This document shows positions 3,166 through 48,832 of a DNA stretch of 64,000 nucleotides, piece after piece. Position numbers and translations under genes: made by a program. The stretch spans positions 64,001 to 128,000 of the forward strand of contig JBFXLE010000004.1 in the NCBI GenBank assembly GCA_050173015.1, written 5' to 3'. Each line of letters opens with the position of its first letter. The first letter of the stretch is position 1. This DNA comes from Calditrichaceae bacterium. Lineage in GTDB: Bacteria; Calditrichota; Calditrichia; Calditrichales; JBFXGD01. A model generated the notes under the pieces. That model was given only the letters and a program-made list of their open reading frames with translations. It made no database searches and was not told the DNA's origin.

Positions 3166-3235
3166 GGAAATATTTCCTAAACGAAAATGAATGGTGAGAG
3201 CTGTGATATAGTCATCAAAAATTAGTTAAGAAATT

Positions 3236-3288
3236 GACAGGGTAGCATGAGAAACAGAAAGAAGGCTCTGTGACTTTGTTATCCTGTC
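3236..3288 (+). other. Intergenic RNA hairpin (possible attenuator or mRNA-stabilising stem)
   Basis: GACAGGGTAGCA (3236-3247) pairs with TGTTATCCTGTC (3277-3288) using two G-U pairs; inner ACAGA/TCTGT stem. Confidence 0.5.
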
Positions 3289-3325
3289 TTTAATAATAAT
3301 TCATAATTAGCCGAATAGAAATTCA

Positions 3326-6085
3326 ATGAAATTTTATTTAATGATAGTACGGATCATGCTGCCGGGATTATGTTTGTTTTCATTTCTGCAGGCGGGTGTG
3401 ACAGGAAAGATTGCCGGCGCCGTGAAAGATATATCTACCGGAGAACCGCTTGCCGGAGTGAATATTGTAGTCGAAGGCAAAAATATTGGCGCCGCCACCG
3501 ATCTGGATGGATATTTTGTGATTTTAAATGTACCTCCCGGTGTCTATACCGTTTCGGCATATTCGATCGGATATGTCACAATATCCATGCAGAATGTAGA
3601 TGTATCCATCGATCTAACCGCGCGGGTGAATTTTGATCTTCAGCAAACGACTCTTGAGTCTTCAGAGACGGTGGTTGTAGAAGCGGAACGCCCGATTATT
3701 ACGCGTGACCTGACCGCGAGTACCGCTGTTGTGGGCAGCAGCACAATTGACGCCCTTCCGGTGACGGAGCTCAGCGAGATATTGGAGCTGCAGGCGGGTG
3801 TTATCGACGGCCATGTTCGCGGCGGGCGAAGCGGAGAAGTAGTTTACGCGATCGATGGTGTTCCCGTAACGGATACCTATGACGGATCGACTGTCGTTGA
3901 TGTCAATACCAGCGCGATTCAGGAGTTACAATTTGTAAGCGGCGCGTTTAACGCCGAATATGGTAAAGCGCTGTCCGGTTATGTTAATATCGCCACGAAA
4001 GAGGCCAGCAATAAATTGGAAGCCGGCATTACCAGTTACGGCGGTGATTATATCAGTAGTCACACCGATATTTTCAGGGGAATTGACCGCTTTGATATAA
4101 CGGCGATCCGTGATATTGAGGGTTTTGTGAGTTTACCTTTAGTAAAAGATAAACTTTCCTTTTATGGAAATGTACGATATATATATTTTGATGGCTGGAT
4201 GAACGGTAAAAAGGTCTTTGAACCCTGGGATATTACCGTTAATAAGGGACCGAGCGAACCGATAGAGGATCGTTATGATATTCAGTCCAGCGGTGACGGA
4301 AAATATGTATCAATGAACTGGAACAGAAAAATAAACGCGCATACTAAATTAACCTATACTCCATTTGCCGGGATAAAGCTGAACTATAATCTGATGTTGG
4401 AAAAAGTCGCCTATCAGGACTATGATCATAGTTTCTCCTATAATCCAGATGGTGATTTTCAACGCTTTCGTAACGGCTTTACAAATATTTTGGGTATGAC
4501 GCATGTTCTTAATGCGGCCACATTTTACCAGTTCAACCTCTCATATTTCAGCAAAGAATATAAACATTACGTCTATGAAGATCCTTATGATTCACGTTAT
4601 ACTCACTATGATCTGTTGAATCAACAGCCGCAGGATGTGCCCAGTTTTTTAACCGGGGGTACAAAGAATCAGCATTTTTACCGTAAAACAAATACATATT
4701 CGGCAAAACTGGATATAACATCCCAAATTACCAAACGGAACCTGATAAAAGGCGGCATTGAGTTCAGCAGGCATAAACTTACATACGACAATTATTATTT
4801 GTTGCAGGAGGCAGGTCTGCCGAGCCCGTCGGAAAGCGGAGATCCATTTGTGAAAACACGGATCCCGGATCCGGATAATCCGAGCGAAAATCTTTCGATT
4901 GACCGCTACACCCGTGAACCCATGGAGATATCCGCTTATTTGCAGGATAAAATTGAATTTGACCAGTTGATCATCAACCTGGGTCTCCGGTATGATGTTT
5001 TTATGCCCGAAGGGCAAATATTATCTGATCCCTCGGATCCTGATATTTATCGCCCTAAAAGACCGGAAAACATCGAGAAGACCATAGAGGAGAGATCAAC
5101 CTACTGGTACAAAGACGCGTCGATCAAATCGCAATTCAGTCCGCGGTTGGGAGTTTCCTTTCCGTTCAGCACAAACGGGGTCTTTCATTTTTCATACGGT
5201 CATTTCTTCCAGATACCAAACTTCGAACTGCTGTACCAGAATCCGCAATATAAGTTCGGCACCGGTACCGGAAATCTCGGCATCGCGGGTAATCCCGATC
5301 TGAAACCGGAACAAACCATAAATGGGGAAGTGGGCTTTTCCTATGGTTTAAACAGAAGCCTGTCAATTGATATTACGGGATATTTTCGTGATATCCGTAA
5401 CTTAGCGGGAACACGCGCCGACGAGATATATATGTTTGGAGGATCGGGAAGCTACAGCCAGCTTGTTAACAGTGATTTTGGTTTCGTCCGGGGAATAGTT
5501 TTTACCCTGGATAAGCGATTCAGTGATAACTGGTCGGCAAAAATTGATTATACCTTCCAGACGGCAAAAGGAAACGCTTCCGATCCGGCAGCGACCAGAA
5601 ACCAGCAGGTTAGCGGCCAGGAGCCTGAGATTCAGTTGATAAATCTGGATTTTGATCAAACGCATACGGTTAACGCCACATTTAATTATGTCACAAATAA
5701 CCGGTGGGGAATAAGTGTGATCGGGCGATATGGCAGCGGAATGCCATATACACCTTCACAATCGATTGACATATCCAAGCTATTGACGAACTCAGAAATA
5801 AAACCATCATTTTATAATGTGGATTTGAAGCTCCGCAAGGATTTAATCATCAACACGCGCGCGGTTACCTTTTTTGCGCGAATTTATAATTTGTTTGATT
5901 TTAAAAATGAGATAAATGTTTACAATGACAGCGGCACAGCTGATTTTACTCTGGAAGAATATTTACGGCAGCAGCAGGATCTGCCGGCTTTGGTGAATAC
6001 GCTGAATGAATACTACCGCATTCCTTATTATTATTCTGAGCCGCGCCGGTTGGAATTGGGTTTAACCCTTCAATTATCTAATTAA
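3326..6085 (+). CDS. TonB-dependent receptor (carboxypeptidase-regulatory-like N-domain, plug, beta-barrel)
   Basis: TGKIAGAVKD..TGEPLAGVNI, HVRGGRSGE...IDGVPV, GAFNAEYG, NLGLRYD, SPRLG, GNPDLKPE, terminal PRRLELGL. Confidence 0.95.
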   Translation: MKFYLMIVRIMLPGLCLFSFLQAGVTGKIAGAVKDISTGEPLAGVNIVVEGKNIGAATDLDGYFVILNVPPGVYTVSAYSIGYVTISMQNVDVSIDLTARVNFDLQQTTLESSETVVVEAERPIITRDLTASTAVVGSSTIDALPVTELSEILELQAGVIDGHVRGGRSGEVVYAIDGVPVTDTYDGSTVVDVNTSAIQELQFVSGAFNAEYGKALSGYVNIATKEASNKLEAGITSYGGDYISSHTDIFRGIDRFDITAIRDIEGFVSLPLVKDKLSFYGNVRYIYFDGWMNGKKVFEPWDITVNKGPSEPIEDRYDIQSSGDGKYVSMNWNRKINAHTKLTYTPFAGIKLNYNLMLEKVAYQDYDHSFSYNPDGDFQRFRNGFTNILGMTHVLNAATFYQFNLSYFSKEYKHYVYEDPYDSRYTHYDLLNQQPQDVPSFLTGGTKNQHFYRKTNTYSAKLDITSQITKRNLIKGGIEFSRHKLTYDNYYLLQEAGLPSPSESGDPFVKTRIPDPDNPSENLSIDRYTREPMEISAYLQDKIEFDQLIINLGLRYDVFMPEGQILSDPSDPDIYRPKRPENIEKTIEERSTYWYKDASIKSQFSPRLGVSFPFSTNGVFHFSYGHFFQIPNFELLYQNPQYKFGTGTGNLGIAGNPDLKPEQTINGEVGFSYGLNRSLSIDITGYFRDIRNLAGTRADEIYMFGGSGSYSQLVNSDFGFVRGIVFTLDKRFSDNWSAKIDYTFQTAKGNASDPAATRNQQVSGQEPEIQLINLDFDQTHTVNATFNYVTNNRWGISVIGRYGSGMPYTPSQSIDISKLLTNSEIKPSFYNVDLKLRKDLIINTRAVTFFARIYNLFDFKNEINVYNDSGTADFTLEEYLRQQQDLPALVNTLNEYYRIPYYYSEPRRLELGLTLQLSN

Positions 6086-9000
6086 TGAAGCAGAGGGTTT
6101 TGATGAAGAACAGCAGTATATATATTTTTTTAATTTTCATGGTATTTGTCCTGACAGGATTTAATCAATCATTTGGCCAGTATGAAAAAAGTACACCGAC
6201 AGCCCGGAGGGTGGGAAATCATAATGGCAACCAGGTACGGACAACTTTTACGAATTATGGTGTGATTGGCCAGCCCGGAAGTCAGGGAACTAATTGCGCC
6301 TGGAAGTATGACGCCAACGGATATGCCACTGATATACAGCCTCTTGTGGGCGTCCGCCTTCCCATCCGTGATTATCGTGTCGCGGGAGTGTATGACGGTG
6401 TGCCAGATACGCTGTTTTCAGTCATTGGCTGTAATGCCGACCGCTCCGGGGTGCCCGATTATGATCCGGGTGGCGGTCAGTTTTGGGGATTTGAACCGAT
6501 CCCCGGTTTTTTTAATCCATCCCTCGATGCATTAGGTATCGGCGTGGCCATGAATCATCTCCCGCAAACCTGGCCCGCGTATTGGCCGGATCATCCTGAT
6601 TGGATAGGTAGTAACGGAAGCGCGGAATGGAATGGTTACTTCGGCCGCGGCGTGGAGAATTCTGATCAGGAGAGTTATTTTTTGATGGATGATGCCAATG
6701 ATCTGAAAATGTGGCAGCGCTATCAATTCTTGCCCGACAGTAATGATACAAGCCGCAAGGGACAGGGAATTCAGGTGGCTGTTCGGGGTATGCAATGGTC
6801 CAATTTTCTGGCGCAGGATGTCATCTTCTGGGTTTATGAAATTACGAACGTGGGGACGGAAGTTTATGACCAGGCTTCTTTTGGAACTTTAATAGGCACT
6901 TATCTGGGTGTCGGGCCCCAGGGCGGAACGGAATGGATGGATGACGCTTCATTCTTTAATGTCCGCGAAGCGATCGTTTATACCTGGGACTTTGATCAAT
7001 ACATCAATCCTTCGGCGAATCCCAAATGGCAGCCCAATCCATATGAAGTCGGTTATATCGGATACGCGTTTCTGGAATCTCCGGGTAACCCTTACGATGG
7101 CATTGACAATGACGGGGACAACGCGCCCAGTGGTTCAGCTCCGTATTTTAATGAGGGAGACTTTGTTCCGCGGACAGTCAAGGCCGGTGATCGATTAATT
7201 TTGATCAATAAGGATACCTATGAAAGGACTTTATTTGTCATGCCCAATGAGCGGACTAATGTTGTCTCTCTCGGCAAGACATTTACACTTATCCCCGATA
7301 CAACTATCCTTGAAGAAGGTAATATGAAGCTTGGAGGCACGTCGGGTTTAACCATTAACAAAAACGCGTTTGATGGTCTGGATAATGATCTTGACGGAAT
7401 GATTGACGAAAATTACCAATTGCATTATCGTCAGTATAAAGAAACCACAGAGGGGAAAGTACTCATAGATACGCTGGCTCCGGTCCAGCATTTTGATTAT
7501 ATCAACGGTATCGGTCTCAACGATCTTTTAATCGACGAAGCCAGGGATGACGGTATTGACAATGATGGTGACTGGGATCCGATGGTGGATGATGTGGGCG
7601 CGGACGGGAAGCCCGGCACCGGCGATTATGGCGAGGGTGATGGTCAGCCCACAAGCGGTGAACCACATTTTGATCAAAAAGATGTGGATGAATCTGACCA
7701 GCTCGGTCTCACCAGTTTTGATTATTTTGTTCCTTCAACAGATATAGATATGAGTGATGAAAAAGAGATGTGGGAACGATTGCGTCCGGGCCGGTTTGAT
7801 GTGCCCGAGTCGATTGTCGATAACCGCGCGGTCAGGGGAGAGGACGGCGATTTTATTTTCGGATCGGGTTATTTCCCTTTACTTCCGGGAAAAACAGAAC
7901 GATTCTCGATGGCTTTAGTTTTCGGTGATGACTATGAAGCTGTTGTACGCAGTAAGAATATTGCTCAGTTGATATATAATTCTAATTACAATTTTCCAAG
8001 ACCCCCGACAAAACCAACTTTGACAGCGGTTCCCGGGGACGGCAGTGTGACATTGTATTGGGATAAGGAAGCCGAAAAATCTTATGATTTCTCTTTGCAG
8101 GAATTTGATTTTGAGGGGTATAAGATATACAAAAGCACGGATCCCGGTTTTTCCGACGCGAAAGTTATATCAAATGGTTATGGACAAATTGTTGACTATA
8201 AACCCTTTGTCCAATATGATCTCAATAATTCAGTAAGCGGTTTTTTTAATTCAGACCCATTGTTATATGAGCTCAGCAGCGGTAAGCCATTTTATCTTGG
8301 CAATGACAGCGGTATTAAAAACAGTTTTGTCGATACCGATGTGATCAACGGACGCACTTATTATTATGCCGTAACAGCGTATGATCGCGGAGATGAAACC
8401 GAATCAATTTATCCGTCGGAAAACACAAAAACCATTTATCGTGACGCGGCGGGCAATCTGGTTCTTGATAGAAATACCGCGGCTGTCACGCCGACCGCTC
8501 CGGTCGCCGGTTATGTGACTCCTGAATCCGGACTTTCCGCTGACCGTGTCGCGGGGTATTCGACATTTATACCCTTCGCCGAAATCGTTGATCAAACCAA
8601 TCTGAAACCAACAACTTATGAAATATCATTTTTAGACTCACTGATCCGGGATGTGCCGGTTGCATTCGCTTATAATATCGTTGATTCAGCGAGCGGTGAT
8701 ACGGTTTATTGGGGGAACACCAATCTGCAAAAGGAAAACGGAGATGTCTTTGACGGCATTCGCTTCTCTTTCAATACACGATATCAGGTATTGGATAGCG
8801 TGCGGCTTGATACATCGAAGAGCGGCTGGAATAATGAAAGAAACGATAATCTTGTTCCGGTCGTTTCAGAATTTAAATTCGGAAATATTGTCAGTACCCG
8901 ATTCCCGAAAGATTATTTGTTCGTATTTTATGAAGAGAGAAACCAGACATCTTCCCGGTTACCTCTAATTTTCGGCACCAGTTCTCCTCTTCAAACCATT

Positions 9001-37425: not shown

Positions 37426-37887
37426 GTGAGGATGGAAGAGAAAAAAGGCCAAAAAAATGTACTGTATCCCATAGGGATGGTCGCCAAAATTTTTGATATT
37501 TCTGTGGCGACGCTCCGGCTGTATGAAGCGGAGGGATTAATCATTCCACGCAAAAGTAAGGGAGGACATCGTCTGTTTACAGAGGTCGATCTTGACCGTA
37601 TCCACTGTATCAGGGATATGATTGATGAAAAAGGCCTGAATCTGGCGGGAATCCGCATGATGTTGTCGGCAATTCCCTGTTGGGAGTTAAAACCATGCTC
37701 CCTTGAAGAGCGCCAGAGTTGCGACGCTTATTATGAATCCAATTCTCCCTGCTGGATGGTCGAAAATAAAGCTGAAATTTGTGCTAATGAGGACTGTAGT
37801 CAATGTCCCGTATATACGCAATCAAACAATTGTACCAATATAAAAATGATTTTAAAGAAATATTGGAGGGCGAAAGGTAATGGCTAA
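37426..37887 (+). CDS. MerR family regulator with Cys-rich (two 'CW' motif) C-terminal domain
   Basis: YPIGMVAKIFDISVATLRLYEAEGLI..KSKGGHRLF; C-terminal PCW..C..C..PCW..C..C..C..C (8 Cys). Confidence 0.88.
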   Translation: MRMEEKKGQKNVLYPIGMVAKIFDISVATLRLYEAEGLIIPRKSKGGHRLFTEVDLDRIHCIRDMIDEKGLNLAGIRMMLSAIPCWELKPCSLEERQSCDAYYESNSPCWMVENKAEICANEDCSQCPVYTQSNNCTNIKMILKKYWRAKGNG

Positions 37888-40090
37888 GAAATTCGACAGA
37901 CGCGAATTTATCAAAATTATGGGTGTCGGTACCGGAGGGGTAATGGTCGGTTCATCCATGTTGCAAGCGCTGGATTTTGGTTCGCTTAATGCCGTCACGC
38001 AAGGGGCAATGGACAGAACCCCCACCTACTGCGAGATATGTTTCTGGAAATGCGCCGGATGGGTTTATAAAAAAGATGATAAACCATGGAAGATCGAAGG
38101 TAATCCGGATGATCCAAACAGCAACGGGCGGTTTTGTCCCCGTGGGACAGGCGGTATTGGCGCGTATAACGATCCTGATCGTTTAAAAACACCGCTAATC
38201 AGGGTTGAAGAACGTGGAAAACAGGTTTTCCGTGAAGCCTCCTGGGAAGAAGCGTTCGACTATATCGCTGAAAAAATGATTGATATTAAAGAAAATCATG
38301 GTCCGGAATGCGTGGCTTTGTTTACGCATGGTTCCGGCGGTGATTATTTTAAAACACTATTGCGGGGATACGGTTCAAACAACATCGCAGCTCCGTCATA
38401 CGCTCAGTGCCGCGGGCCGCGTGAAGAAGCTTACATGCTTACTTTTGGCGAGGCGGTCGGTTCTCCGGAAAGAACCGATATCGCTAACAGTAAATGCATC
38501 GTTCTGATCGGATCACATCTTGGTGAAAATATGCATAACGGTCAGGTACAGGAGTTCTCTGAAGCGGTGGCAAAAGGCGCGTCTGTTATCACGGTTGACC
38601 CCAGATTTTCGACGGCCGCCAGCAAATCAAAATATTGGCTTCCGATAAAACCCGGAACGGATATGGCCTTACTTCTTGCCTGGATACATGTCATTATAAA
38701 TGAAGAATTGTATGATAAAAAGTATGTGGAAAAATATACCTATGGATTTGAACAATTAAAGGCAGCGGTTAAGGATAAAACCCCGGAGTGGGCATACACG
38801 AAAACAACAATTAAACCGAACGTCATCCGGGAAACGGCCAGGGAAATGGCTAAAAACGCGCCTGCTACATTAGTGCATCCGGGACGCCATGTTACATGGT
38901 ACGGCGATGATACTCAGCGTGTCAGGGCAGGAGCAATCCTCAATGCGCTGCTCGGCTCCTGGGGACGCAGGGGAGGGTTTTATGTTCCAGCGAAAGCTCA
39001 TCTCGCCAAAGCCAAATTACCTCCGTTTCCGGCAACCAACAAGAGCTGGAAAGACGCGTTCCCCGGGAAATTCCCGCTGGCGAGCCTGGCCCTATCTTCG
39101 GGAATCTGTGACGCCACGATCCCTTCTCCCCAGCATGATTGTTCATTCAAGGGGTGGATCGTATACGGAACAAATCTGCCGCTGACACTTCCGGAACCGA
39201 AAAAAACATTGGAAGCGATTCAAAATCTTGAACTACTTGTGGCGATCGATATCATGCCCGCGGAGATCACCGGTTGGGCCGATGTTGTGCTTCCTGAATG
39301 CACATATTTGGAACGTTACGATGACATAAGAATATCTCCGGGACGCGTTCCGACCATTGCTTTACGCGCGCCGGCATTCGAGCCTAAGTATAATACAAAA
39401 CCGGCATACTGGATGGCCAGGGAACTGTCAAAACGATTGGGTCTTCAGCAATATTTTCCGGCTGAAACGATGGAAAAACATATTGATCAGAGACTCAAGA
39501 CAATCGGCAGCAGTCTGAAAGAAATGAAAAAGATTGGCGTTAAGCGGTTTGAAAACGAATATGACCTCTATTTTCTTAATGGAGAAGATTATGAGTTCGG
39601 CACGCCAACCGGTAAGATCGAATTATACTCAACCACACTAAGCGACGCGGGATTTGATCCAATTCCACAATATACCGCCCATGAGGAACCGCCTGCAAAT
39701 TATTACCGCCTTCTTTACGGACGGGCACCAATGCATACTTTTGGAAGGACAGCAAATAATCCTAACCTGAATGATCTGATGGATGAGAATGAAGTCTGGA
39801 TAAATCCTAAAGTCGCCAAAGAATGGGGAATCAAGAACAGGCAATATATTAAATTAGAGAACCAGGATGGTGTCATATCTAATAAAATTCGCGTAAAAGT
39901 GACTGAACGAATTCGTCATGATTCAGTCTATATGGTTCATGGATTCGGTCACACACAGAAACAAATGACCCGTTCTTATCAGAAGGGTGCAAATGACACG
40001 GGACTGATTAGCAGGGTTAAAGTTGATCCGATTATGGGAGGCACGGGAATGCGTGTTAATTTTGTCACCTTTAAGAGGGAGGTAGCGTAA
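37880..40090 (+). CDS. psrA: Polysulfide/thiosulfate reductase molybdopterin subunit (PsrA/PhsA)
   Basis: Tat signal DRREFIK; FS0 motif CEICFWKC...FCPRG; Mo-ligand region APSYAQCRG; ADVVLPECTYLER. Confidence 0.88.
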   Translation: MAKKFDRREFIKIMGVGTGGVMVGSSMLQALDFGSLNAVTQGAMDRTPTYCEICFWKCAGWVYKKDDKPWKIEGNPDDPNSNGRFCPRGTGGIGAYNDPDRLKTPLIRVEERGKQVFREASWEEAFDYIAEKMIDIKENHGPECVALFTHGSGGDYFKTLLRGYGSNNIAAPSYAQCRGPREEAYMLTFGEAVGSPERTDIANSKCIVLIGSHLGENMHNGQVQEFSEAVAKGASVITVDPRFSTAASKSKYWLPIKPGTDMALLLAWIHVIINEELYDKKYVEKYTYGFEQLKAAVKDKTPEWAYTKTTIKPNVIRETAREMAKNAPATLVHPGRHVTWYGDDTQRVRAGAILNALLGSWGRRGGFYVPAKAHLAKAKLPPFPATNKSWKDAFPGKFPLASLALSSGICDATIPSPQHDCSFKGWIVYGTNLPLTLPEPKKTLEAIQNLELLVAIDIMPAEITGWADVVLPECTYLERYDDIRISPGRVPTIALRAPAFEPKYNTKPAYWMARELSKRLGLQQYFPAETMEKHIDQRLKTIGSSLKEMKKIGVKRFENEYDLYFLNGEDYEFGTPTGKIELYSTTLSDAGFDPIPQYTAHEEPPANYYRLLYGRAPMHTFGRTANNPNLNDLMDENEVWINPKVAKEWGIKNRQYIKLENQDGVISNKIRVKVTERIRHDSVYMVHGFGHTQKQMTRSYQKGANDTGLISRVKVDPIMGGTGMRVNFVTFKREVA

Positions 40091-40627
40091 ATGTCTCGAT
40101 ATGCAATGGCTATAGATACAAAACGATGTGTGGGTTGCGCCGATTGCGTTGTTGCCTGCCAGACGGAAAATAATGTTCCGATAGGATACTGTAAAGACTG
40201 GATTGTTGAGGAAATGACCGGTGTCTATCCGGAATTACAGCTTGAAATCCGCTCAGAACGATGCAATCACTGTGAAGACGCGCCCTGTGTGCGTTCCTGC
40301 CCGACCAGCGCCAGTCATTATGAAGAAGGTGGCATTGTTCTGGTGACTCATGAGGAATGTATCGGTTGTAAGGCGTGTATTGCTTCCTGCCCTTACGATG
40401 CAAGATTTGTTCATCCTGAAGGCTATGTGGATAAGTGTACATTTTGTATTCACAGAGTTAAAGACGGAAAAGATCCGGCATGTGTCAGCGTCTGTCCGAC
40501 ACACGCGATGATTTTTGGAGATCTGGATGATCCGAATAGTGAGATCTCAAAAACAATCCGTACGAGAAAAAATAAGACACTCATCCCGGAAGCAGGTACA
40601 AAACCTCATGTTTATTATCTGCTGTAA
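40091..40627 (+). CDS. psrB: 4Fe-4S dicluster electron-transfer subunit (PsrB/NrfC)
   Basis: CVGCADCVVAC, CNHCEDAPCVRSCP, CIGCKACIASCPY, KCTFC...PACVSVCP. Confidence 0.92.
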   Translation: MSRYAMAIDTKRCVGCADCVVACQTENNVPIGYCKDWIVEEMTGVYPELQLEIRSERCNHCEDAPCVRSCPTSASHYEEGGIVLVTHEECIGCKACIASCPYDARFVHPEGYVDKCTFCIHRVKDGKDPACVSVCPTHAMIFGDLDDPNSEISKTIRTRKNKTLIPEAGTKPHVYYLL

Positions 40628-40677: not shown

Positions 40678-41631
40678 ATGAAAGAAATAACCATCACATC
40701 AGGGAGAATGAATCCGGGTATTGATCCGGTGCTTCATGCATGGGGTTGGGAAATCCCTGTTTACCTGTTTCTTGGAGGGCTTGTTGCCGGTATTCTGTTC
40801 TTCTCAACTCTATATTATATCCGCGGCCGACAGAATGACTACCCGACAGCGGTGAAAATCGCGCCGTTATTTGTCCCCGTGTTTTTATCAATCGGATTGC
40901 TGGCGTTGTTTCTCGATTTGTCGCATAAACTCTATTTTTGGCGACTGTACACGACAGTCCGGTGGGAGTCACCGATGTCCTGGGGCGCGTGGACGCTTCT
41001 TTTAATCTTTCCGCTCTCCATACTCTGGATCGCAACATGGATCGAGGATGTATTTCCTAAATGGAACTGGAAATATAAAATATTAAAAATCAGCGCGGAT
41101 TTACTAAAAAATTACCGCAAACTTCTGGCCTGGTCGGTTATGATCCTCGCGCTTATTCTCGGTATGTACACAGGTATTCTGCTTTCCGCCTTTAATGCGC
41201 GTCCATTCTGGAACACATCGATACTCGGGCCCTTATTTCTGGTTTCCGGTTTATCCACAGGAACGGCGTTCATCATTTTGCTGTCAAAATCTCATGAAGA
41301 GAAGAAAAGGTTCAGTCAGATTGATTTAACCCTGATTGGTGCGGAGCTGTTCTTAATCGTTCATATGTTTATGGGATTTCTGGCCAGCACCGAGGTCCAT
41401 ATTCAGGCCGCGGAACTTTTCCTCGGCGGACCGTACACCGCTGTATTCTGGACATTTATCGTCGGATTAGGGCTGGTGATTCCGCTTATTGTAGAGCTTC
41501 TGGAACTTCGCGGCGTGAAGATTCCTTTGCAAATTCCGGCATTGCTTGTGCTTATGGGCGGATTTATTCTGAGATTCATTGTTGTTGACGCCGGGCAGAC
41601 TTCGAGATGGCTGTATAAGTTTTTGGAGTAG
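40678..41631 (+). CDS. psrC: NrfD/PsrC membrane anchor subunit
   Basis: WGWEIPVYLFLGGL, LFLDL, SPMSWGAW, YTGILL..RPFWN. Confidence 0.9.
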   Translation: MKEITITSGRMNPGIDPVLHAWGWEIPVYLFLGGLVAGILFFSTLYYIRGRQNDYPTAVKIAPLFVPVFLSIGLLALFLDLSHKLYFWRLYTTVRWESPMSWGAWTLLLIFPLSILWIATWIEDVFPKWNWKYKILKISADLLKNYRKLLAWSVMILALILGMYTGILLSAFNARPFWNTSILGPLFLVSGLSTGTAFIILLSKSHEEKKRFSQIDLTLIGAELFLIVHMFMGFLASTEVHIQAAELFLGGPYTAVFWTFIVGLGLVIPLIVELLELRGVKIPLQIPALLVLMGGFILRFIVVDAGQTSRWLYKFLE

Positions 41632-41639
41632 GGAGGAAG

Positions 41640-42178
41640 AAGAAGTAGGAAGTAAGAAGTAGGAAGTAGGAAGGTTAAGAAAAAAGAAAAAAGAAAAAAG
41701 AAAAAAGATTAAGAACGGTCTGAACCTGGATTAAAATGATTAAATGATTTGGATGATTAAGAAATTGGAAATCAGAGTTGTCATTTAATCAGTCGAATCA
41801 GAGTTCAGACAAAGAAGTAAGAAGTAGGAAGTTGGAAGTGGGAAGTGGGAAGGTTAAGAAAAAAGAAAAAAGAAAAAAGATTAAGAACGGTCTGAACCGG
41901 GATTAAAATGATTAAATGATTTGGATGATTAAGAAATTGGAAATCAGAGTTGTCATTTAATCAGTCGAATCAGAGTTCAGACAAAGAAGTAAGAAGTAGG
42001 AAGTAAGAAGTAGGAAGTGGGAAGGTTAAGAAAAAAGAAAAATGAAAAAAGATTAAGAACGGTCTGAACCGGGATTAAAATGATTAAATGATTTGGATGA
42101 TTAAGAAATTGGAAATCAGAGTTGTCATTTAATCAGTCGAATCAGAGTTCAGACAAAGAAGTAAGAAGTAGGAAGGTT
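41640..42178. repeat. Composite tandem repeat: 3 x 172-bp units of heptamer arrays plus a 93-bp palindromic element
   Basis: GATTAAGAAC starts at 41707, 41879, 42051 (period 172); GTCTGAAC...GTTCAGAC elements at 41718-41810, 41890-41982, 42062-42154; (RGAAGTR)n and (AAGAAAA)n heptamers between them. Confidence 0.95.
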
Positions 42179-42279
42179 TAAAAAAAATATTGGGTGAGGA
42201 AGTCCGTGCCCAAAGAAAAAAGTGGATCTTAAAATAAATATAAAGAATAATTCCGGGTTTTAACGAGAGGAATCAAAAG

Positions 42280-42783
42280 ATGAAAGAACAAAAGTATTGG
42301 TCACCCTATTTATCAGGAATTGGCCTGGGGATTACACTCTTGCTGGCTTTTGTGATTATGGGGCGGGGACTTGGCGCTTCCGGTGCCATGATGAGGTTTG
42401 AAGTCTGGTTTCTAAACCTGTTCGCAGCCGATCATGTGGCGGCAAATCCTTATTTTAGCAAATATGCAAATAATCCTTTGTCAAACTGGCTGATTTTTGA
42501 AGTAATTGGTGTCATTATCGGCGGATTTTTATCAGGGGCTCTCGCGGGACGCCTGAAATTTAAAATCGGCAAAGGTCCGAATATTTCAAACAAAGGGCGT
42601 TTAGCTCTTGCTTTTGGTGGAGGCGCCTTAATGGGATTCGCCGCGCGTTTGGCGCGAGGATGTACCAGTGGTCTTGCGCTTACCGGTGGGGCGACGCTCG
42701 CTCTTGGAGGCTGGGTTTTTATGCTGATGATCTTCGCGGGTGGATACATGACCGCATATTTCGTCCGGAGACAGTGGTTATAA
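42280..42783 (+). CDS. YeeE/YedE family sulfur-compound transporter, half 1
   Basis: WSPYLSGIGLG, GLGASG, GGFLSG, GFAARLARGCTSG. Confidence 0.9.
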   Translation: MKEQKYWSPYLSGIGLGITLLLAFVIMGRGLGASGAMMRFEVWFLNLFAADHVAANPYFSKYANNPLSNWLIFEVIGVIIGGFLSGALAGRLKFKIGKGPNISNKGRLALAFGGGALMGFAARLARGCTSGLALTGGATLALGGWVFMLMIFAGGYMTAYFVRRQWL

Positions 42784-42844: not shown

Positions 42845-43450
42845 ATGATGGAGAAAACTATGGCACCCTTTTTTAAAATGGGATTTTTTGGAGAGCAGAC
42901 AAGTTTTATAATCGCTCTGATCCTTGGTATCAGTTTTGGTTTCTGGCTGGAAAGAGCCGGTTTTGGCGACAGCCGTAAATTAGCCCTTCAATTTTATTTT
43001 GAAGATATGACGGTCCTGAAAGTCATGTTTACGGCCATACTGGTGGCGATGGTAGGAATGATGTATATGACCTTGTTTGGCTATCTCGATATTGAAAAAG
43101 TATATATCAATCCGACATATATCTGGGCTCAGACAATCGGCGGACTCGTTTTGGGAGTCGGTTTCGCGATCGGCGGATATTGCCCGGGTACCTCAGTTGT
43201 GGGCGCGGCGACTGGAAGAATTGACGGTTTTGTGTATATTTTGGGAGCTCTGTTCGGGATGTTCGTGTTTGGGGAGATGTTCCCGTTCATCGAAGAGTTC
43301 TATTATGCCGGTTTCATGGGTAACGCGAAGCTGACCGACTTTTTTGGTCTTTCCACCGGTGTGGTGGGACTTCTCGTTATTCTGATGGCCGTGGGTATGT
43401 TTTACGGCGGTGAATGGTTGGAGAGAAAGTTCAGGAAGGAGACTGTATAA
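42845..43450 (+). CDS. YeeE/YedE family sulfur-compound transporter, half 2
   Basis: FGFWLERAGF, DMTVLKVMFTAI, GVGFAIGGYCPGTS. Confidence 0.9.
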   Translation: MMEKTMAPFFKMGFFGEQTSFIIALILGISFGFWLERAGFGDSRKLALQFYFEDMTVLKVMFTAILVAMVGMMYMTLFGYLDIEKVYINPTYIWAQTIGGLVLGVGFAIGGYCPGTSVVGAATGRIDGFVYILGALFGMFVFGEMFPFIEEFYYAGFMGNAKLTDFFGLSTGVVGLLVILMAVGMFYGGEWLERKFRKETV

Positions 43451-44076
43451 TGACATTTTCAAGCAAAACTCTCGGTTTTGGTTTGTTGGTTTTATTGGGT
43501 CTGATTCTGGCATTCTCACCCGTGGATAAGATGAGCCGGAAGCCGGTTACAGCCGAACAACTGATCAAAGAAATCACGACAAAAAAAGATTTTGTTCAGC
43601 CGGAAGACCTGGCGCACTGGATTATTGATAAAGATCCGGGTTTTCAGGTGATTGATGTCCGGTCAAAGGATGACTATGCAAAATATCATATTCCCGGAAG
43701 TGTCAGCATTCCGCTTGAGAAATTGGTCGATTCAGAGAGCAGGGACTATATCTATGCGAATAAAATGTTGATTCTTACTTCAAACGGAAACACAAATGCA
43801 TCCCAGGCCTGGATTTTTATGAAGCAATTGGGATATAAGGAAGTTTATATTCTTTCGGGCGGAATGAATTACTGGGTAGATGTTTTTAGCAATCCTAATC
43901 CTCCGGAAGGTAGCTACACGGACGATGAACTCTTCACTTACCAGTTCCGAAAAGCGGCTGGGCCGGTGATGATGGGAACGGCGGTCGCTACTTCATCCGA
44001 AGTAACAATTGAAGCGCCGGCTCCTGTAAAAAGAGCAATCAGGATGCCAAAGAAAAAGCGTGATGAGGGATGTTAA
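43450..44076 (+). CDS. Membrane-anchored rhodanese-like protein with C-terminal EGC; start placed at 43450
   Basis: N-terminal TM/signal; VIDVRS..Y...HIPGS, LSGGMNYW; ATG overlaps the yeeE stop (TAATG). Confidence 0.85.
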   Translation: MTFSSKTLGFGLLVLLGLILAFSPVDKMSRKPVTAEQLIKEITTKKDFVQPEDLAHWIIDKDPGFQVIDVRSKDDYAKYHIPGSVSIPLEKLVDSESRDYIYANKMLILTSNGNTNASQAWIFMKQLGYKEVYILSGGMNYWVDVFSNPNPPEGSYTDDELFTYQFRKAAGPVMMGTAVATSSEVTIEAPAPVKRAIRMPKKKRDEGC

Positions 44077-44085
44077 GATTACCTG

Positions 44086-44120
44086 AAGCAGGGCAGATAA
44101 TTTCTGCTCTGCTTTTTTTT
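44086..44120. terminator. Terminator between convergent operons
   Basis: AAGCAGGGCAGA-TAATT-TCTGCTCTGCTT followed by a T-run. Confidence 0.8.
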
Positions 44121-45744
44121 ATTTGTTGAATAGTTCTTCTATGCCGTCGTTTTTAAATGCCCTTGTCCGCCACTTTTTGTAATCCGCCGATTTTTCCAAC
44201 AATCTTCGTTGTTCCTGACTGTTTAATAAACGGCTTCCCGGTATAACAGGTTCGGTCGGCAGAGTTATTGAATTTGAAACGGAGTTCGAAAAAGCATTGC
44301 GAATTCCCAATCCGGCGGCTTTGGTATTACCGTGACAGCTTTCACAGACGCGCCCACTCTTCCCGGTTGTGTGGGGTGTGTACGCATCCCATGACCAACC
44401 GGGGCGCCCGTCAGATCTTTTCGGGATGACCGAATCAAGCCATAAATTTTCACTGGAATCCACATACGTTATAAAATACTGATGTAGCGGTCGGATAATT
44501 GAGTATTTTCCATTGGAATTTACTCCCAGCACGGGATCTTCCCATCGTCTGAACGACCAGCCTTTATACCAGATTCCGGTTGATTCCACACCTGTTAAAC
44601 GATTGGGCGAATGAGCGGTTGGCCGTACTGTCGGATCAATCAGAAACATATCGGTCAATAAATTGATAACGGATTTATCTCCCTGCCAAATCAAATTTTC
44701 CCATATTTCATAATGTTTGGTTTCATCCAGAAAAAGATGAAGACCGTAATCCTGGTATGACCATTGCGCGTGACACGAACCGCAGGTTAAATCCGCGTGA
44801 AAATCCATATGTGATATGATGTCTTTATTAAATTTTATTACATCTTTTTTATTTGGAGCTTGTTTAAATCCGCCGTGGCAATTTTCGCACCTGATATCCG
44901 AAGGCTGCTCTCCAAATTTTCTATTTCGGAAATCACCCATGACACTCTGTGAAGTGTGACAGTCAAGACATGTCATACCCGCATTCTGATGCACATCGGT
45001 AGCGAGACGGTGCTGATAGGCGCCGAAGAAGGGTTGGCTTCCGTAAGGCGTCGCGTATTCCTGATGATAGTCATGTTCAAAATAACCATAATAGTCACCA
45101 CCGATATGATTATTTGAATGACAAGTCAGACAGGTTTTATCCACAACTTTTTTCTGCATTTTATGACCATGCAGGGGCTCACCATTTTTCTGATCGAAGG
45201 GAATATGACAAGATGCGCATCCGCCGGCTCTTATTTTACCAGGCTGCTCATCCTTCCCTGAAGCGTTAAAGTGACAGGAAAGACATTTTTTTGCCAGCAG
45301 ATTGTCCACGAGCTCCGGAGGGGTCGTACCTGTGGCGCGTCCTGTTCTGCCCAGCAGTTTCCATTGATCGGGATCAGGATTCGTAACAAGCGTTTTGTCT
45401 TTTCCCCAAAGATATCTGGTCTGTGAGATCATTCCCCCGGCAGAGTAGTGAAGGCTGTTTTTAAATTGAGTGATTTCTTTTTGATGACAGCTGAGACATT
45501 TTTCACGCCACCATTTTTCTAATGAAGGATTTTGTATCACACGCGAATGACCTGCCTGATCGGGTTGAAAATCAGCGTTTGGTGAGGAATGACAGTCCGC
45601 GCAGGTAATATTGCAGCTGGATTCAATACCCTTATGACAATCAACGCAGTTCTCGCCCGCGTATCCGGCGGACACGACCATGAGCAATAAAACCTGAAGG
45701 CTTATTTGTCGGATTAACCTCACAGAATAACAACTCTTAATCAT
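44119..45744 (-). CDS. Multiheme cytochrome c (10 CxxCH)
   Basis: CVDCH, CADCH, CLSCH x2, CASCH, CLTCH, CLDCH, CENCH, CGSCH, CESCH; signal peptide; ATG at 45744 overlaps the upstream stop. Confidence 0.9.
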   Translation of the reverse strand: MIKSCYSVRLIRQISLQVLLLMVVSAGYAGENCVDCHKGIESSCNITCADCHSSPNADFQPDQAGHSRVIQNPSLEKWWREKCLSCHQKEITQFKNSLHYSAGGMISQTRYLWGKDKTLVTNPDPDQWKLLGRTGRATGTTPPELVDNLLAKKCLSCHFNASGKDEQPGKIRAGGCASCHIPFDQKNGEPLHGHKMQKKVVDKTCLTCHSNNHIGGDYYGYFEHDYHQEYATPYGSQPFFGAYQHRLATDVHQNAGMTCLDCHTSQSVMGDFRNRKFGEQPSDIRCENCHGGFKQAPNKKDVIKFNKDIISHMDFHADLTCGSCHAQWSYQDYGLHLFLDETKHYEIWENLIWQGDKSVINLLTDMFLIDPTVRPTAHSPNRLTGVESTGIWYKGWSFRRWEDPVLGVNSNGKYSIIRPLHQYFITYVDSSENLWLDSVIPKRSDGRPGWSWDAYTPHTTGKSGRVCESCHGNTKAAGLGIRNAFSNSVSNSITLPTEPVIPGSRLLNSQEQRRLLEKSADYKKWRTRAFKNDGIEELFNK

Positions 45745-47522
45745 CAATTTTTTCTGCATGGCAGGTGGCTCTCATTCCGGTACCTTTCGATACTTTGTTC
45801 AAAATTTCTATAAATGGCGTCATTATAGGTATCATGACAGGTGATACAAAGACTAACCCTGTAAATGTTTTTGATCTCTTTCATGTCAAACGGGCGGGCG
45901 GTGAGTCTTGACATGCGTTGGGTCAGCCTGCCCTGACCATCGGTCATCATCTCAAGGCTAGTTTTCCCAAGGCCGGCCGTTTGCGTATCGTACAGTTGCT
46001 GTGTTTCGAAACCATTTTCTCGCGGTTTCAGAAATCCTTCTCCCATTCCTAGACGCTTGATATTACTGTGGCAATCTATACATTCCGGCACTGATTTTCT
46101 TGTAGAATGCGGATCAAACGGGGCCATGGTCAGCCAGGTTTTTTGCTGTCTGATCTGCAAAGAGTCATTCAGTTCGGTTAAATACACCTGGCATCCGGGA
46201 GCGAAGGGCATAACCCGATCCAGATTGTCCACACCGAGTGTGGGTTTTTCATAGCGCAGGTATGAGCGTCCCTCACGCCAGTGGCCGAATGTTTCCTCAT
46301 TGCTGACTTTGTCAAGCTGTTTTTTGGTGGGATCGTAAATATCATGACAACCGTAACACTGCGGCGTATAAGCGGAGTGACAGGACTGACATCCCATCCT
46401 ATCATGTCCCTGAAAATTACAGGCTTCATTATTTTTGTTTTGCGGAATTTCCAGCTCTTTACCGTCAAGTTTTCTGGTCAGCACGGGCTTTCCCGACCGC
46501 ATTTCTACATTGGCGTAAAATGAACCGCGGGTTGTTCTTGCCAACAGGGAATCATCCGGCATCATAAGATTTTGGTTGACAGATATAATTTTCCATACAA
46601 TATTATCCGCGGGAGGACGTTCAAATTCCGCGTCATGACAGTCTTCACATTTGATATGCACCTGCTGTTCAAGGTGCTCGTATCTTTTGCCGTCTCCCAT
46701 GATATCTTCCGCGACATGGCAGTCGATACAGGTCATTCCCGCGTCAAAATGGACATCCGCTGTTATATGATAGTAAAATCTGCCGCCTGAGAGTTCCATT
46801 TGGGAAGTATTTCCGCCCTCATAGGGTGTGCCGTATCCTTCTGATTCAAATTTTCCCTGATAGGTCAGCGCTGTTCTGTTGGAGCGGTTATGGCATTTTT
46901 CACAGGTCGGGATATCGATTTCCACACTCAGCGTTGGATGTATTTTCAAATTCTCGTTTTTCACCAGGTGACAATCGTTGCATCCGCCACCGCGTTCTCC
47001 GATTTCTCCGGGGAAATCATTTTCGCGTTTATTGATATGACAACTCGCGCAAAGCTTTCGGAGATGCGAGGTCGCCAGCGAAGTGTCCGGAATGTTCTGA
47101 TCTATATGAAGCGTGGAATCATCGGGAGTTGATTTTTCATACCATTGATAGAGAGTTGACGCAACCAGTCCTGAATTTGAAGTCATTATGGAATTTTTAA
47201 CGGAATGCGCCAGATCGGAATGGCATTCGCTTTTACCGCAGGTTTGGTCAACCCAGTGTAGATCGGATGGATTCCTGACCATGCCGTAGTGCGCGTTTCT
47301 TTCATCGGCTGCATCCGGATTTCCGAGATGACAGGTGTAACATCCAAAGATTTTATTTGGGTGTGAAGAACTCATATCCTTCTCATCAGCATGACAGGAA
47401 ATACAGCGGTCAGGCCGATTAAGGGCGTTTATGTTATCATTCGTGCCGTTATTCTGTATGGTTAAAATGATAACCAGAAGAAGAATCAAAATTGAAAGAA
47501 TTAAATATGTCCGGGGTTTCAT
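45744..47522 (-). CDS. Membrane-anchored multiheme cytochrome c (11 CxxCH + 1 CX4CH)
   Basis: CISCH, CYTCH, CGKSECH, CASCH, CNDCH, CEKCH, CIDCH, CEDCH, CQSCH, CYGCH, CIDCH, CITCH; N-terminal TM; ATGA overlap with cytochrome b. Confidence 0.9.
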   Translation of the reverse strand: MKPRTYLILSILILLLVIILTIQNNGTNDNINALNRPDRCISCHADEKDMSSSHPNKIFGCYTCHLGNPDAADERNAHYGMVRNPSDLHWVDQTCGKSECHSDLAHSVKNSIMTSNSGLVASTLYQWYEKSTPDDSTLHIDQNIPDTSLATSHLRKLCASCHINKRENDFPGEIGERGGGCNDCHLVKNENLKIHPTLSVEIDIPTCEKCHNRSNRTALTYQGKFESEGYGTPYEGGNTSQMELSGGRFYYHITADVHFDAGMTCIDCHVAEDIMGDGKRYEHLEQQVHIKCEDCHDAEFERPPADNIVWKIISVNQNLMMPDDSLLARTTRGSFYANVEMRSGKPVLTRKLDGKELEIPQNKNNEACNFQGHDRMGCQSCHSAYTPQCYGCHDIYDPTKKQLDKVSNEETFGHWREGRSYLRYEKPTLGVDNLDRVMPFAPGCQVYLTELNDSLQIRQQKTWLTMAPFDPHSTRKSVPECIDCHSNIKRLGMGEGFLKPRENGFETQQLYDTQTAGLGKTSLEMMTDGQGRLTQRMSRLTARPFDMKEIKNIYRVSLCITCHDTYNDAIYRNFEQSIERYRNESHLPCRKN

Positions 47523-48430
47523 CTGTTTAAAAATTGCCATCCATCCCCTCGAAAATATGTACCAATGATGCTTTCAATCATATAAATAATAATCATAAGG
47601 AGTATAAAATACAGCACGGACTTTTCAAATTTCTTTACTACCGGTAACAGAAAGAAGGCGATGAGTATCAGCGAGGGGAAAACAACACCAGCGATCGAAA
47701 CCGGCAGCCAGGCAAGAAGTTCCTGCAATCCGATGAAGTACCAGGGTCCTTTTACAACTTCAATAACCGCGTCCGGTCTGAATCCCAGTTTTGCGGGAAA
47801 CAAAATTGCAAAAAGTGAGATCAATATGATTGTATATGCAAACGCGTACCGCTCCGATTTTAATCTGTGAATATGAATATAGGTAAGAATCACGGATAAG
47901 ATTGAAAAAGTGGCCGCGTGATGCGTATAGATTACCGCCAGCGGTGTTGTTGAACGTTCCGACTGCAGGAGAAAGTTTGACAGAGTATTCCCAAGCGCGG
48001 GAAGCGTTTGCAGGATTCCGTCAAAGATATGCACCGCGGAAAAACTTTCCTTGCTGCCGATACTTAAAAATCCGCTGAAGACGGTAAGAATGGAGATTAC
48101 GAACAGAATGATAAGCAATCCCCATGATTTCATGGTATAGCTTTGATAAGTTTTTTTTAAAAGATATTCAATGATATGGATGACTGTTGAAATTAGAAAT
48201 ATATCACCCGCGTAAGAATGGAAACCGTGTAAAAAAGCACCCATATAGCCGGCGCTGATGAATTGACTGACACTCCGGAATGGATCGTCGCCGGAAATAT
48301 AGAAGGGTATGAGCATTAATCCTGAAATCAGGGCTAATACAAGGCTGCTGAGTGAAATTTCCCCCCAGCCCGGCATCCACAATGTTTTTTCAAAAAAGAC
48401 TGATCGGTTCAAGATTTTATCCATTTTCAA
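47519..48430 (-). CDS. Cytochrome b/b6-like protein (Rieske/cyt b complex membrane subunit)
   Basis: ISGLML..FY, heme His in GFHSY / VIHI / THH / YIHI; SGFL; PEWY-equivalent GPWYFIGLQELL. Confidence 0.82.
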   Translation of the reverse strand: MKMDKILNRSVFFEKTLWMPGWGEISLSSLVLALISGLMLIPFYISGDDPFRSVSQFISAGYMGAFLHGFHSYAGDIFLISTVIHIIEYLLKKTYQSYTMKSWGLLIILFVISILTVFSGFLSIGSKESFSAVHIFDGILQTLPALGNTLSNFLLQSERSTTPLAVIYTHHAATFSILSVILTYIHIHRLKSERYAFAYTIILISLFAILFPAKLGFRPDAVIEVVKGPWYFIGLQELLAWLPVSIAGVVFPSLILIAFFLLPVVKKFEKSVLYFILLMIIIYMIESIIGTYFRGDGWQFLNR

Positions 48431-48436
48431 AAAAGA

Positions 48437-48832
48437 TCAAATAATTATCTCAATATCATTCGTTTCGTTGAGTTTATAATCCAGATCGGTCAGATTTTTT
48501 TTTGCCGGTCCGGATAAATAATTCCCTTCATTGTCAAATTTGCTGCCGTGACAGGGGCAGATGAACATTTTGCTGTTTTCGTTAAAATTTACGGTGCATC
48601 CCAAATGAGTACATTTTTTTGAAATGATGCGCAATTTTTGATGGTCAGTTCTGACAAAGAAAAATTCGGTTTCCTTCAGGTCTTTCAATTTTAATTTTAG
48701 AACATGTTTCTTTTGGGAAATACGATTTAAAAAACCGGAAAATGGAAAATACAAAAGACCTGCAGCCAGAAATAAAATTCTCCGGCCTAATGTATGTAAA
48801 AATGTGCGGCGTTTGTAAGTGTTTTCCGACAT
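48437..48832 (-). CDS. Rieske [2Fe-2S] protein
   Basis: KCTHLGC and CPCHGSKF boxes, SGPA; Tat-like KRRTFL. Confidence 0.95.
   Translation of the reverse strand: MSENTYKRRTFLHTLGRRILFLAAGLLYFPFSGFLNRISQKKHVLKLKLKDLKETEFFFVRTDHQKLRIISKKCTHLGCTVNFNENSKMFICPCHGSKFDNEGNYLSGPAKKNLTDLDYKLNETNDIEIII

Follow-up and report, generated by a model that had tools for sequence, protein, structure and literature searches.

We analyzed a gene, here called rhd, that lies on a 64,000-nucleotide stretch of DNA from a Calditrichaceae bacterium (assembly GCA_050173015.1, contig JBFXLE010000004.1, positions 64,001 to 128,000 of the forward strand). This whole stretch is the window, and all coordinates count from its first nucleotide unless a locus is named. 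The gene closes a cassette with the order psrA, psrB, psrC, YeeE/PmpAB half A, YeeE/PmpAB half B and rhd, and its product is a rhodanese-type protein that lacks the cysteine of the rhodanese loop and carries its sole cysteine as the last residue. The features of rhd are the following:

43450 to 44076, plus strand: rhd, 208 amino acids (aa), a membrane-tethered rhodanese without loop cysteine and with a cysteine-tipped tail
43450 to 43521, plus strand: residues 1–24, a short basic N-terminus then a hydrophobic helix, signal-anchor (AlphaFold2 helix 5–22)
43780 to 43800, plus strand: degenerate active-site loop S111-N-G-N-T-N-A117, Ser for Cys and Asn for Arg, from the alignment to 6mxv
43921 to 43971, plus strand: family-specific helix 158–174 past the rhodanese core, with conserved E160, Y164, F166, R167 and A170
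43981 to 44073, plus strand: flexible arm, residues 178–208, with an Ala/Thr/Pro linker, P192, a polybasic patch and the DEGC end (predicted local distance difference test score, pLDDT, 45–68)
44071 to 44073, plus strand: TGT codon of Cys208, the sole cysteine of the rhd product, followed by TAA
44085 to 44115, plus strand: terminator-like hairpin of 13 pairs with a T run, closing the operon

The translation terminates in ...RMPKKKRDEGC. The start at 43450 was favoured because an AGGAGA motif lies 7 nt 5' of the ATG, because this ATG shares one base with the TAA of the YeeE half B gene (TAATG, indicating translational coupling), and because the starts of homologues coincide with it. A longer open reading frame (ORF) from 43414, of 220 aa and with a second cysteine, was rejected on these same three grounds. 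One member of the rhd family was found in the source genome.

Residues 54–143 matched the Pfam Rhodanese family (PF00581) with an E-value of 6e-17 and 62.4 bits, for a gathering cut-off of 22.2. The AlphaFold2 model of the product, built from a 70-row alignment, placed one helix at residues 5–22, ahead of the rhodanese core, and a further one at residues 158–174 (mean pLDDT 82.5), and its tail was of low to moderate confidence from residue 178 (low at 178–187, moderate to the end). With this model, Foldseek returned ordinary single-domain rhodaneses as top matches (e.g., 3nhv, E 6.7e-8, TM-score 0.69 on the target), and the alpha/beta rhodanese fold was thus recovered by both approaches. When the family profile was compared with the sequences of solved structures, S111 and N116 aligned to the Cys and the Arg, respectively, of the 6mxv loop CGGGFRS. 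The rhd loop is therefore without both hallmark residues, and the product does not have the cysteine that opens the CX4-5R/K loop of catalytic rhodaneses. A sequence-only reading of this DNA had described a Ser in the rhodanese loop where Cys is expected, a sole Cys as the last residue, an Ala/Pro/Thr linker with a basic patch in the tail and an N-terminal membrane anchor. All four were recovered, the first in the alignment of S111 to the 6mxv loop Cys, the second and third in the translation itself and the fourth as the predicted helix 5–22 with a hydrophobic core at residues 12–20. No curated family of Pfam or NCBIfam covers the Cys-tailed proteins: in NCBIfam there was no specific model for rhd, the best matches being generic rhodanese-containing models far under their cut-offs, and the matches in the ESM Atlas were rhodanese clusters labelled only "hypothetical protein".

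A terminal cysteine not conserved among homologues would have refuted the sequence-only reading, but this residue proved to be conserved. Of the 88 relatives found in databases, 86 have GC as their last two residues, one has the end GGCS and one is a truncated entry of 189 aa without the tail; all but two of the 88 have exactly one cysteine. Among them is an orthologue with 53% identity, P0049, from the cultured species Caldithrix abyssi. The genome loci of the family were the best 80 of 520 matches in a collection of one genome per species (185,579 species). The terminal cysteine was present in 79/79 complete orthologues at these loci, with the ends GGC (49), EGC (21), GCS (5), AGC (2), DGC (1) and GSC (1), and the 80th ORF runs off the end of its contig. 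The metagenome loci were the best 80 of 378 matches, obtained by scanning contigs with a 7-sequence alignment of close relatives, and 108 of their 111 complete ORFs have the terminal cysteine. Distant representatives were drawn from an exhaustive search of 1.84 billion representatives; among the best 150, 106 were proteins of 170–260 aa, with mutual identity below 50%, and 98/106 have a cysteine within the last three residues. Across 315 family sequences, a single cysteine is found in 252, and the ends are mostly GGC (143), EGC (133) or GGCS/G/E/D (25). Judged from these sets, conservation of the terminal cysteine is far in excess of chance.

The arm itself is also constrained. In the rhd family G207 and C208 are invariant and P192 and K202 are conserved at 90% or more, and the distance from W142 to the terminal cysteine has a median of 67 residues with an interquartile range of 66–68 (315 sequences). 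The mean charge is +4.4 for the tail and -7.5 for the rhodanese domain; the two charges correlated with a Spearman coefficient of -0.16 (nominal p 0.005, 311 related and non-independent sequences), which is too weak a basis for proposing that the arm parks on the domain. One subfamily has an acidic tail end, ...EEEEGC.

Loss of the loop cysteine was examined in an alignment of 99 members, i.e., the query and 98 terminal-Cys representatives. Column 111 is occupied by S in 81, G in 9, C in 5, A in 2, T in 1 and D in 1, so that this second expectation of the sequence-only reading held as well. In these alignments, loss of the loop cysteine together with gain of the terminal one stands out as the defining trait of the rhd family, a few members having both. 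The 5/99 members that combine a loop cysteine with a terminal cysteine may be intermediates in the relocation of the thiol from the loop to the arm.

The genes and the gap that precede rhd in the window are as follows:

37880 to 40090, plus strand: psrA, molybdopterin catalytic subunit of a polysulfide/thiosulfate-type reductase, with a twin-arginine signal (DRREFIK); Pfam Molybdopterin, Molydop_binding and Fe4S4
40091 to 40627, plus strand: psrB, four-cluster ferredoxin subunit; Pfam Fer4_11 and related families
40678 to 41631, plus strand: psrC, NrfD-type membrane quinol subunit; Pfam NrfD, 2.4e-46
41632 to 42179, no strand: gap between psrC and YeeE half A with a 172-bp repeat period and identical promoter-like matches at 41709, 41881 and 42053
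42280 to 42783, plus strand: YeeE/PmpAB half A, 167 aa, with the RGCTSG cysteine C128; Pfam Sulf_transp profile positions 174–309
42845 to 43450, plus strand: YeeE/PmpAB half B, 201 aa, with the GGYCPGTS cysteine C113; Pfam Sulf_transp profile positions 13–152

PsrA matched PsrA of Thermus thermophilus (2vpw) over its full length with 718 bits and the NCBIfam PhsA model with 495 bits, under the cut-off of 694. C128 of half A and C113 of half B are each invariant in 70 sequences, and no solved structure matched the profile of half B at E up to 0.01. Most related loci do not have the gap between psrC and the YeeE genes. Counting only loci with enough upstream sequence, YeeE halves A and B lie immediately upstream of rhd in 73/74 genome loci and 45/47 metagenome loci, and psrABC lies upstream in 62/63 and 26/26, respectively. 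The hosts of the cassette include Calditrichota, Bacteroidota, Marinimicrobia and Lentisphaeria. The only other genes that recur near the cassettes are a MerR-like ORF (26 loci) and a MobA-like ORF (28 loci), and the conserved neighbours include no further Cys-bearing soluble partner. The MerR-like ORF is small and precedes psrA in 26/80 genome loci (e.g., L001:1222-1677). In the locus L081, psrABC (3159-6932) is followed by two tandem rhd members (6992-8393), both ending in EEEEEGC, without the YeeE halves, so the link with Psr can stand alone. An ORF of 284 aa with a signal sequence (MKALKSLLV...) lies upstream in the same locus, at 112-966.

Natural fusions connect the family to one half of the channel. 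In P0218 (407 aa), YeeE half B is followed by a single membrane helix and then by a Cys-less rhodanese whose tail ends in GGC, and P0187, which is N-terminally incomplete, has the same layout and the same GGC end. P0238 and P0239 (669 and 671 aa) also begin with YeeE half B, a helix and a Cys-less rhodanese; these continue into a canonical two-domain rhodanese with a CRTGHQAS loop, which occupies the position of the arm, and have no Cys-tipped arm. Because the fusions join YeeE half B to rhd, it can be argued that the rhd protein works physically with this channel half. Moreover, since a canonical rhodanese pair replaces the arm in P0238 and P0239, the fusions suggest that the arm fulfils the function of a sulfurtransferase cysteine and may be functionally interchangeable with one. 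The association with YeeE and PsrA put forward in the sequence-only reading is strongly supported by synteny and by the natural YeeE-half::rhodanese fusions. A complex prediction for YeeE half A, half B and rhd (70-row alignments) scored 0.22, for a mark of 0.32, and was counted neither for nor against.

Signal-type arguments would place the rhodanese domain in the periplasm. First, lipoprotein signals are present in the homologues P0214, P0205, P0156 and the first L081 copy (lipobox-like sequences in 9/315), and such homologues must be exported. Second, the N-terminus is basic and signal-like, with a mean of 2.1 K+R against 0.1 D+E in residues 1–11 of the family. Third, PsrA has a twin-arginine signal and is therefore exported, and the fusions place one membrane helix between the channel half and the rhodanese domain, which also argues for the periplasmic side. 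As P24 of the anchor is invariant and G17 and A21 are conserved at 90% or more, the hydrophobic segment would be kept as a helix and not cleaved off as a signal.

Several known systems resemble rhd in part. Sud is a periplasmic polysulfide-sulfur transferase that works with a Psr-type reductase, and Klimmek reportedly found in 1999 that its single cysteine is essential. To our knowledge, delivery of insoluble or reactive sulfur to the buried active site of Psr is known only for this Wolinella protein. Like rhd, Sud of Wolinella succinogenes (1qxn) is a single-domain rhodanese with one functional cysteine, and 1qxn matched the family profile with E 1e-5. In Sud the cysteine sits in the loop of a soluble protein, whereas rhd has Ser in the loop, its only cysteine (residue 208) at the tip of an arm of about 30 residues and a membrane tether, and is encoded with a split YeeE channel. 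A possible Sud-like partnership with Psr would fit the psrABC linkage given above and the likely export, to which the lipoprotein-type homologues and the signal-like N-terminus point. YgaP of E. coli is, like rhd, a rhodanese tethered to the inner membrane, and it matched the family profile with E 3e-5. YgaP differs in having a cysteine in its loop, membrane helices at the C-terminus and its domain in the cytoplasm, and in lacking a Cys-tipped arm.

The tail resembles that of SoxY, whose GGCGG cysteine binds sulfur substrates according to the available text on this protein (PMC6067878). SoxY and rhd share a Gly-flanked cysteine at the extreme C-terminus, the cargo cysteine in SoxY and a putative one in rhd, and a periplasmic location (a probable one for rhd), a likeness at the level of the motif only. 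They differ in that rhd has a rhodanese fold, a much longer polybasic arm and a reductase-type molybdenum enzyme as partner; no SoxZ or Sox enzymes were found among its conserved neighbours, which are only psrABC and the YeeE halves, and the product does not have the SoxY fold. At the channel, YeeD offers one essential cysteine at the cytoplasmic face of YeeE, and natural YeeE-YeeD fusions exist, as described in the accessible part of PMC11073785. Like YeeD/TsuB, rhd is encoded right after the channel gene and is fused to the channel in some species. YeeD is a small cytoplasmic protein of the TusA fold at the channel exit, whereas rhd gave only rhodanese-type matches in Pfam and NCBIfam, is presumed to lie at the outer face and is separated from the channel by a helix in the fusions.

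We propose that the rhd product is a periplasmic, SoxY-like swinging-arm sulfur carrier serving Psr and the YeeE channel, and we give this reading a probability of about 0.58. The product would be anchored at the inner membrane by its N-terminal helix and face the periplasm, the Cys- and Arg-less rhodanese fold probably being a module for docking or a scaffold. The reactive thiol would stand on the last residue of the roughly 30-residue arm, of nearly fixed length, flanked by the small pairs Gly-Gly or Glu-Gly. Its thiolate would load sulfane sulfur, supplied by polysulfide, by S0 or by thiosulfate through its sulfane atom, to give a persulfide or polysulfide on the cysteine. The arm would swing back and forth from the molybdenum site, buried within periplasmic PsrA, to the outer opening of the channel formed by the two YeeE/PmpAB pieces. 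The slender Gly-flanked end could reach into the PsrA funnel, pass sulfur to the outer YeeE mouth, or both. At PsrA the arm would take the role of Wolinella Sud; at the channel it would provide a cysteine on the entry side, the counterpart of the exit-side "fourth cysteine" of YeeD. The carrier role, which had been proposed from the letters of the window, is plausible, with sulfane-sulfur loading and shuttling between YeeE and PsrA suggested by analogy. We consider that the rhd product is probably a sulfur-carrying arm of a kind undescribed so far.

Several points weigh against this proposal. The location of the domain draws on the signal-type arguments presented above, a crude hydropathy and charge profile left the topology of the YeeE halves unsettled, and polybasic stretches are commoner on the cytoplasmic side of membrane proteins. 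Persulfidation of Cys208 is suggested solely by analogy and context, and the molybdenum enzyme may reduce polysulfide, or thiosulfate, or run in reverse, and the direction of flow could differ. Because S111, N112 and G113 are conserved, the loop appears to retain some role beyond that of a mere scaffold. Finally, L062 and L156 have an rhd member without the cassette, and both sets of loci hold the best-matching members, weaker relatives in other contexts lying outside the 80 taken from each search.

An unlikely alternative, the strongest of those considered, is that the terminal cysteine is structural, gating or redox-sensing. It would form a disulfide or polysulfide bridge to a second copy or to a cysteine of YeeE or PsrA, and would hold the complex together or plug and regulate the channel, without any cargo. 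Such pairing is suited by the tandem rhd copies, each with a terminal cysteine, that we observed in 37/80 metagenome loci; each YeeE half offers an invariant cysteine, and the basic tail near an acidic domain could park or plug. However, 0/80 genome loci have a tandem copy and the source genome has one member, so paralogue pairing is not a general feature. In its fixed length and its Gly-flanked end the arm also resembles carrier arms, and the replacement of the arm by a catalytic rhodanese pair in P0238 and P0239 argues for transfer chemistry rather than a staple.

It is likewise improbable, in our judgement, that the same architecture serves another cargo, the arm carrying selenium (from selenite or selenide) or a thiosulfonate (a thiosulfate-derived S-sulfonate). 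YeeE half A scored about equally low against the selenium model YedE/FdhT (49.8 bits) and the thiosulfate model TsuA (49.1 bits), and half B matched the same three model families. All these matches are far under the cut-offs, which also counts against reading a cargo from them. The srr operon of the sole known respiratory selenite reductase, which is Psr-like, includes rhodanese-domain genes, according to the available part of its description (PMC12481199). Williams et al. (2022), in the text available, read the same kind of cluster as a thiosulfate reductase with uptake of an unknown sulfur species (PMC9324843). On the other side, PsrA is very close to the Thermus PsrA and the conserved neighbours include no selenium-specific gene.

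A reversed topology, with the domain and arm in the cytoplasm and replacing YeeD/TusA as acceptor at the inner exit of YeeE, is considerably harder to sustain. In its favour, rhd occupies the place that yeeD has next to yeeE, and its translation is coupled to that of the channel gene; a polybasic tail would also agree with the positive-inside rule, and YeeD uses a single cysteine, located at the cytoplasmic face (accessible text of PMC11073785). Against it stand the homologues with lipoprotein signals, which must be exported, the basic, signal-like N-terminus and the periplasmic Psr partner. In addition, a membrane helix separates YeeE half B from the rhodanese in the fusions, whereas the linker to the cytoplasmic partner in natural YeeE-YeeD fusions has about 40 residues, as given in the same text. 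Least credible of all is a cysteine unrelated to sulfur cargo, serving as a modification (e.g., lipidation) or metal site or in a chaperone for Mo, W or Cu: the polybasic stretch with a terminal cysteine superficially recalls eukaryotic lipidated tails, and the MobA-like ORF of 28 loci and the molybdenum-cofactor genes of L062 would suit it, but no modifying enzyme is conserved in the cassette, an N-terminal anchor is already present and we know of no bacterial precedent.

The cassette itself has been noticed before. Williams et al. (2022) described a phsABC-pmpA/B-sulfurtransferase cluster in Ca. Electryonea clarkiae, Ca. Lernaella stagnicola and Caldithrix abyssi, together with a fusion of PmpA/B and sulfurtransferase, and termed both the transported species and the sulfurtransferase's role unclear (PMC9324843). 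This cluster is the rhd cassette, and the missing loop cysteine and the terminal Cys arm go unmentioned in the available text. Psr operons of Marinimicrobia are discussed without a Cys-tailed rhodanese in the accessible parts of PMC3906813 and PMC5688066. Full-text literature searches returned no description of a terminal-Cys rhodanese, supplements and subscription-only papers being outside their scope. We regard rhd as genuine and strongly conserved, a variant, uncharacterised to date, on known designs of sulfur carriers.

If the swinging-arm carrier is confirmed, a tethered Cys arm kept with a reductase and a sulfur channel would be a concrete and easily testable mechanism of sulfur handling. 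It would be a case of a "dead" rhodanese domain repurposed by shifting the thiol onto a SoxY-like arm, and the YeeE/PmpAB family would gain an outer-face partner matching the inner-face YeeD. Studies of sulfur cycling in sediments and oxygen-poor oceans widely rely on Psr-type genes as markers, as can be seen in the available text of PMC3906813 and PMC5688066. A more far-reaching idea, which we regard as speculative and on balance doubtful, is that the Psr-type reductases of hundreds of FCB-group species, including Marinimicrobia of ocean oxygen-minimum zones, work mainly on arm-tethered sulfur and less on polysulfide or thiosulfate in free form. PsrABC, the split YeeE and the Cys-tipped rhodanese would then form one membrane supercomplex. 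As a counterpart to the Sox carrier system, working reductively or reversibly, it would couple periplasmic sulfur redox directly to import.

Further observations concern single loci and the surroundings of the cassette. The lone rhd member of L062 (L062:6941-7606) is an ORF that opens with a MobA-like N-terminal piece (GIVLSGGKSSRMG), with no psr or yeeE gene within 7 kb; by eye, its neighbours resemble a TauE/SafE-type membrane protein and molybdenum-cofactor genes. L110, L119, L120 and L147 share a conserved protein, about 342 aa long and with the canonical rhodanese loop CYTGQ, some 3.5 kb downstream of the cassette, and in cassettes followed by this protein both rhd members end in DEGC. 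In the window, a convergent operon on the minus strand (44119-48832) encodes two large multihaem cytochromes, a cytochrome b and a Rieske protein, and ends 43 bp past rhd.

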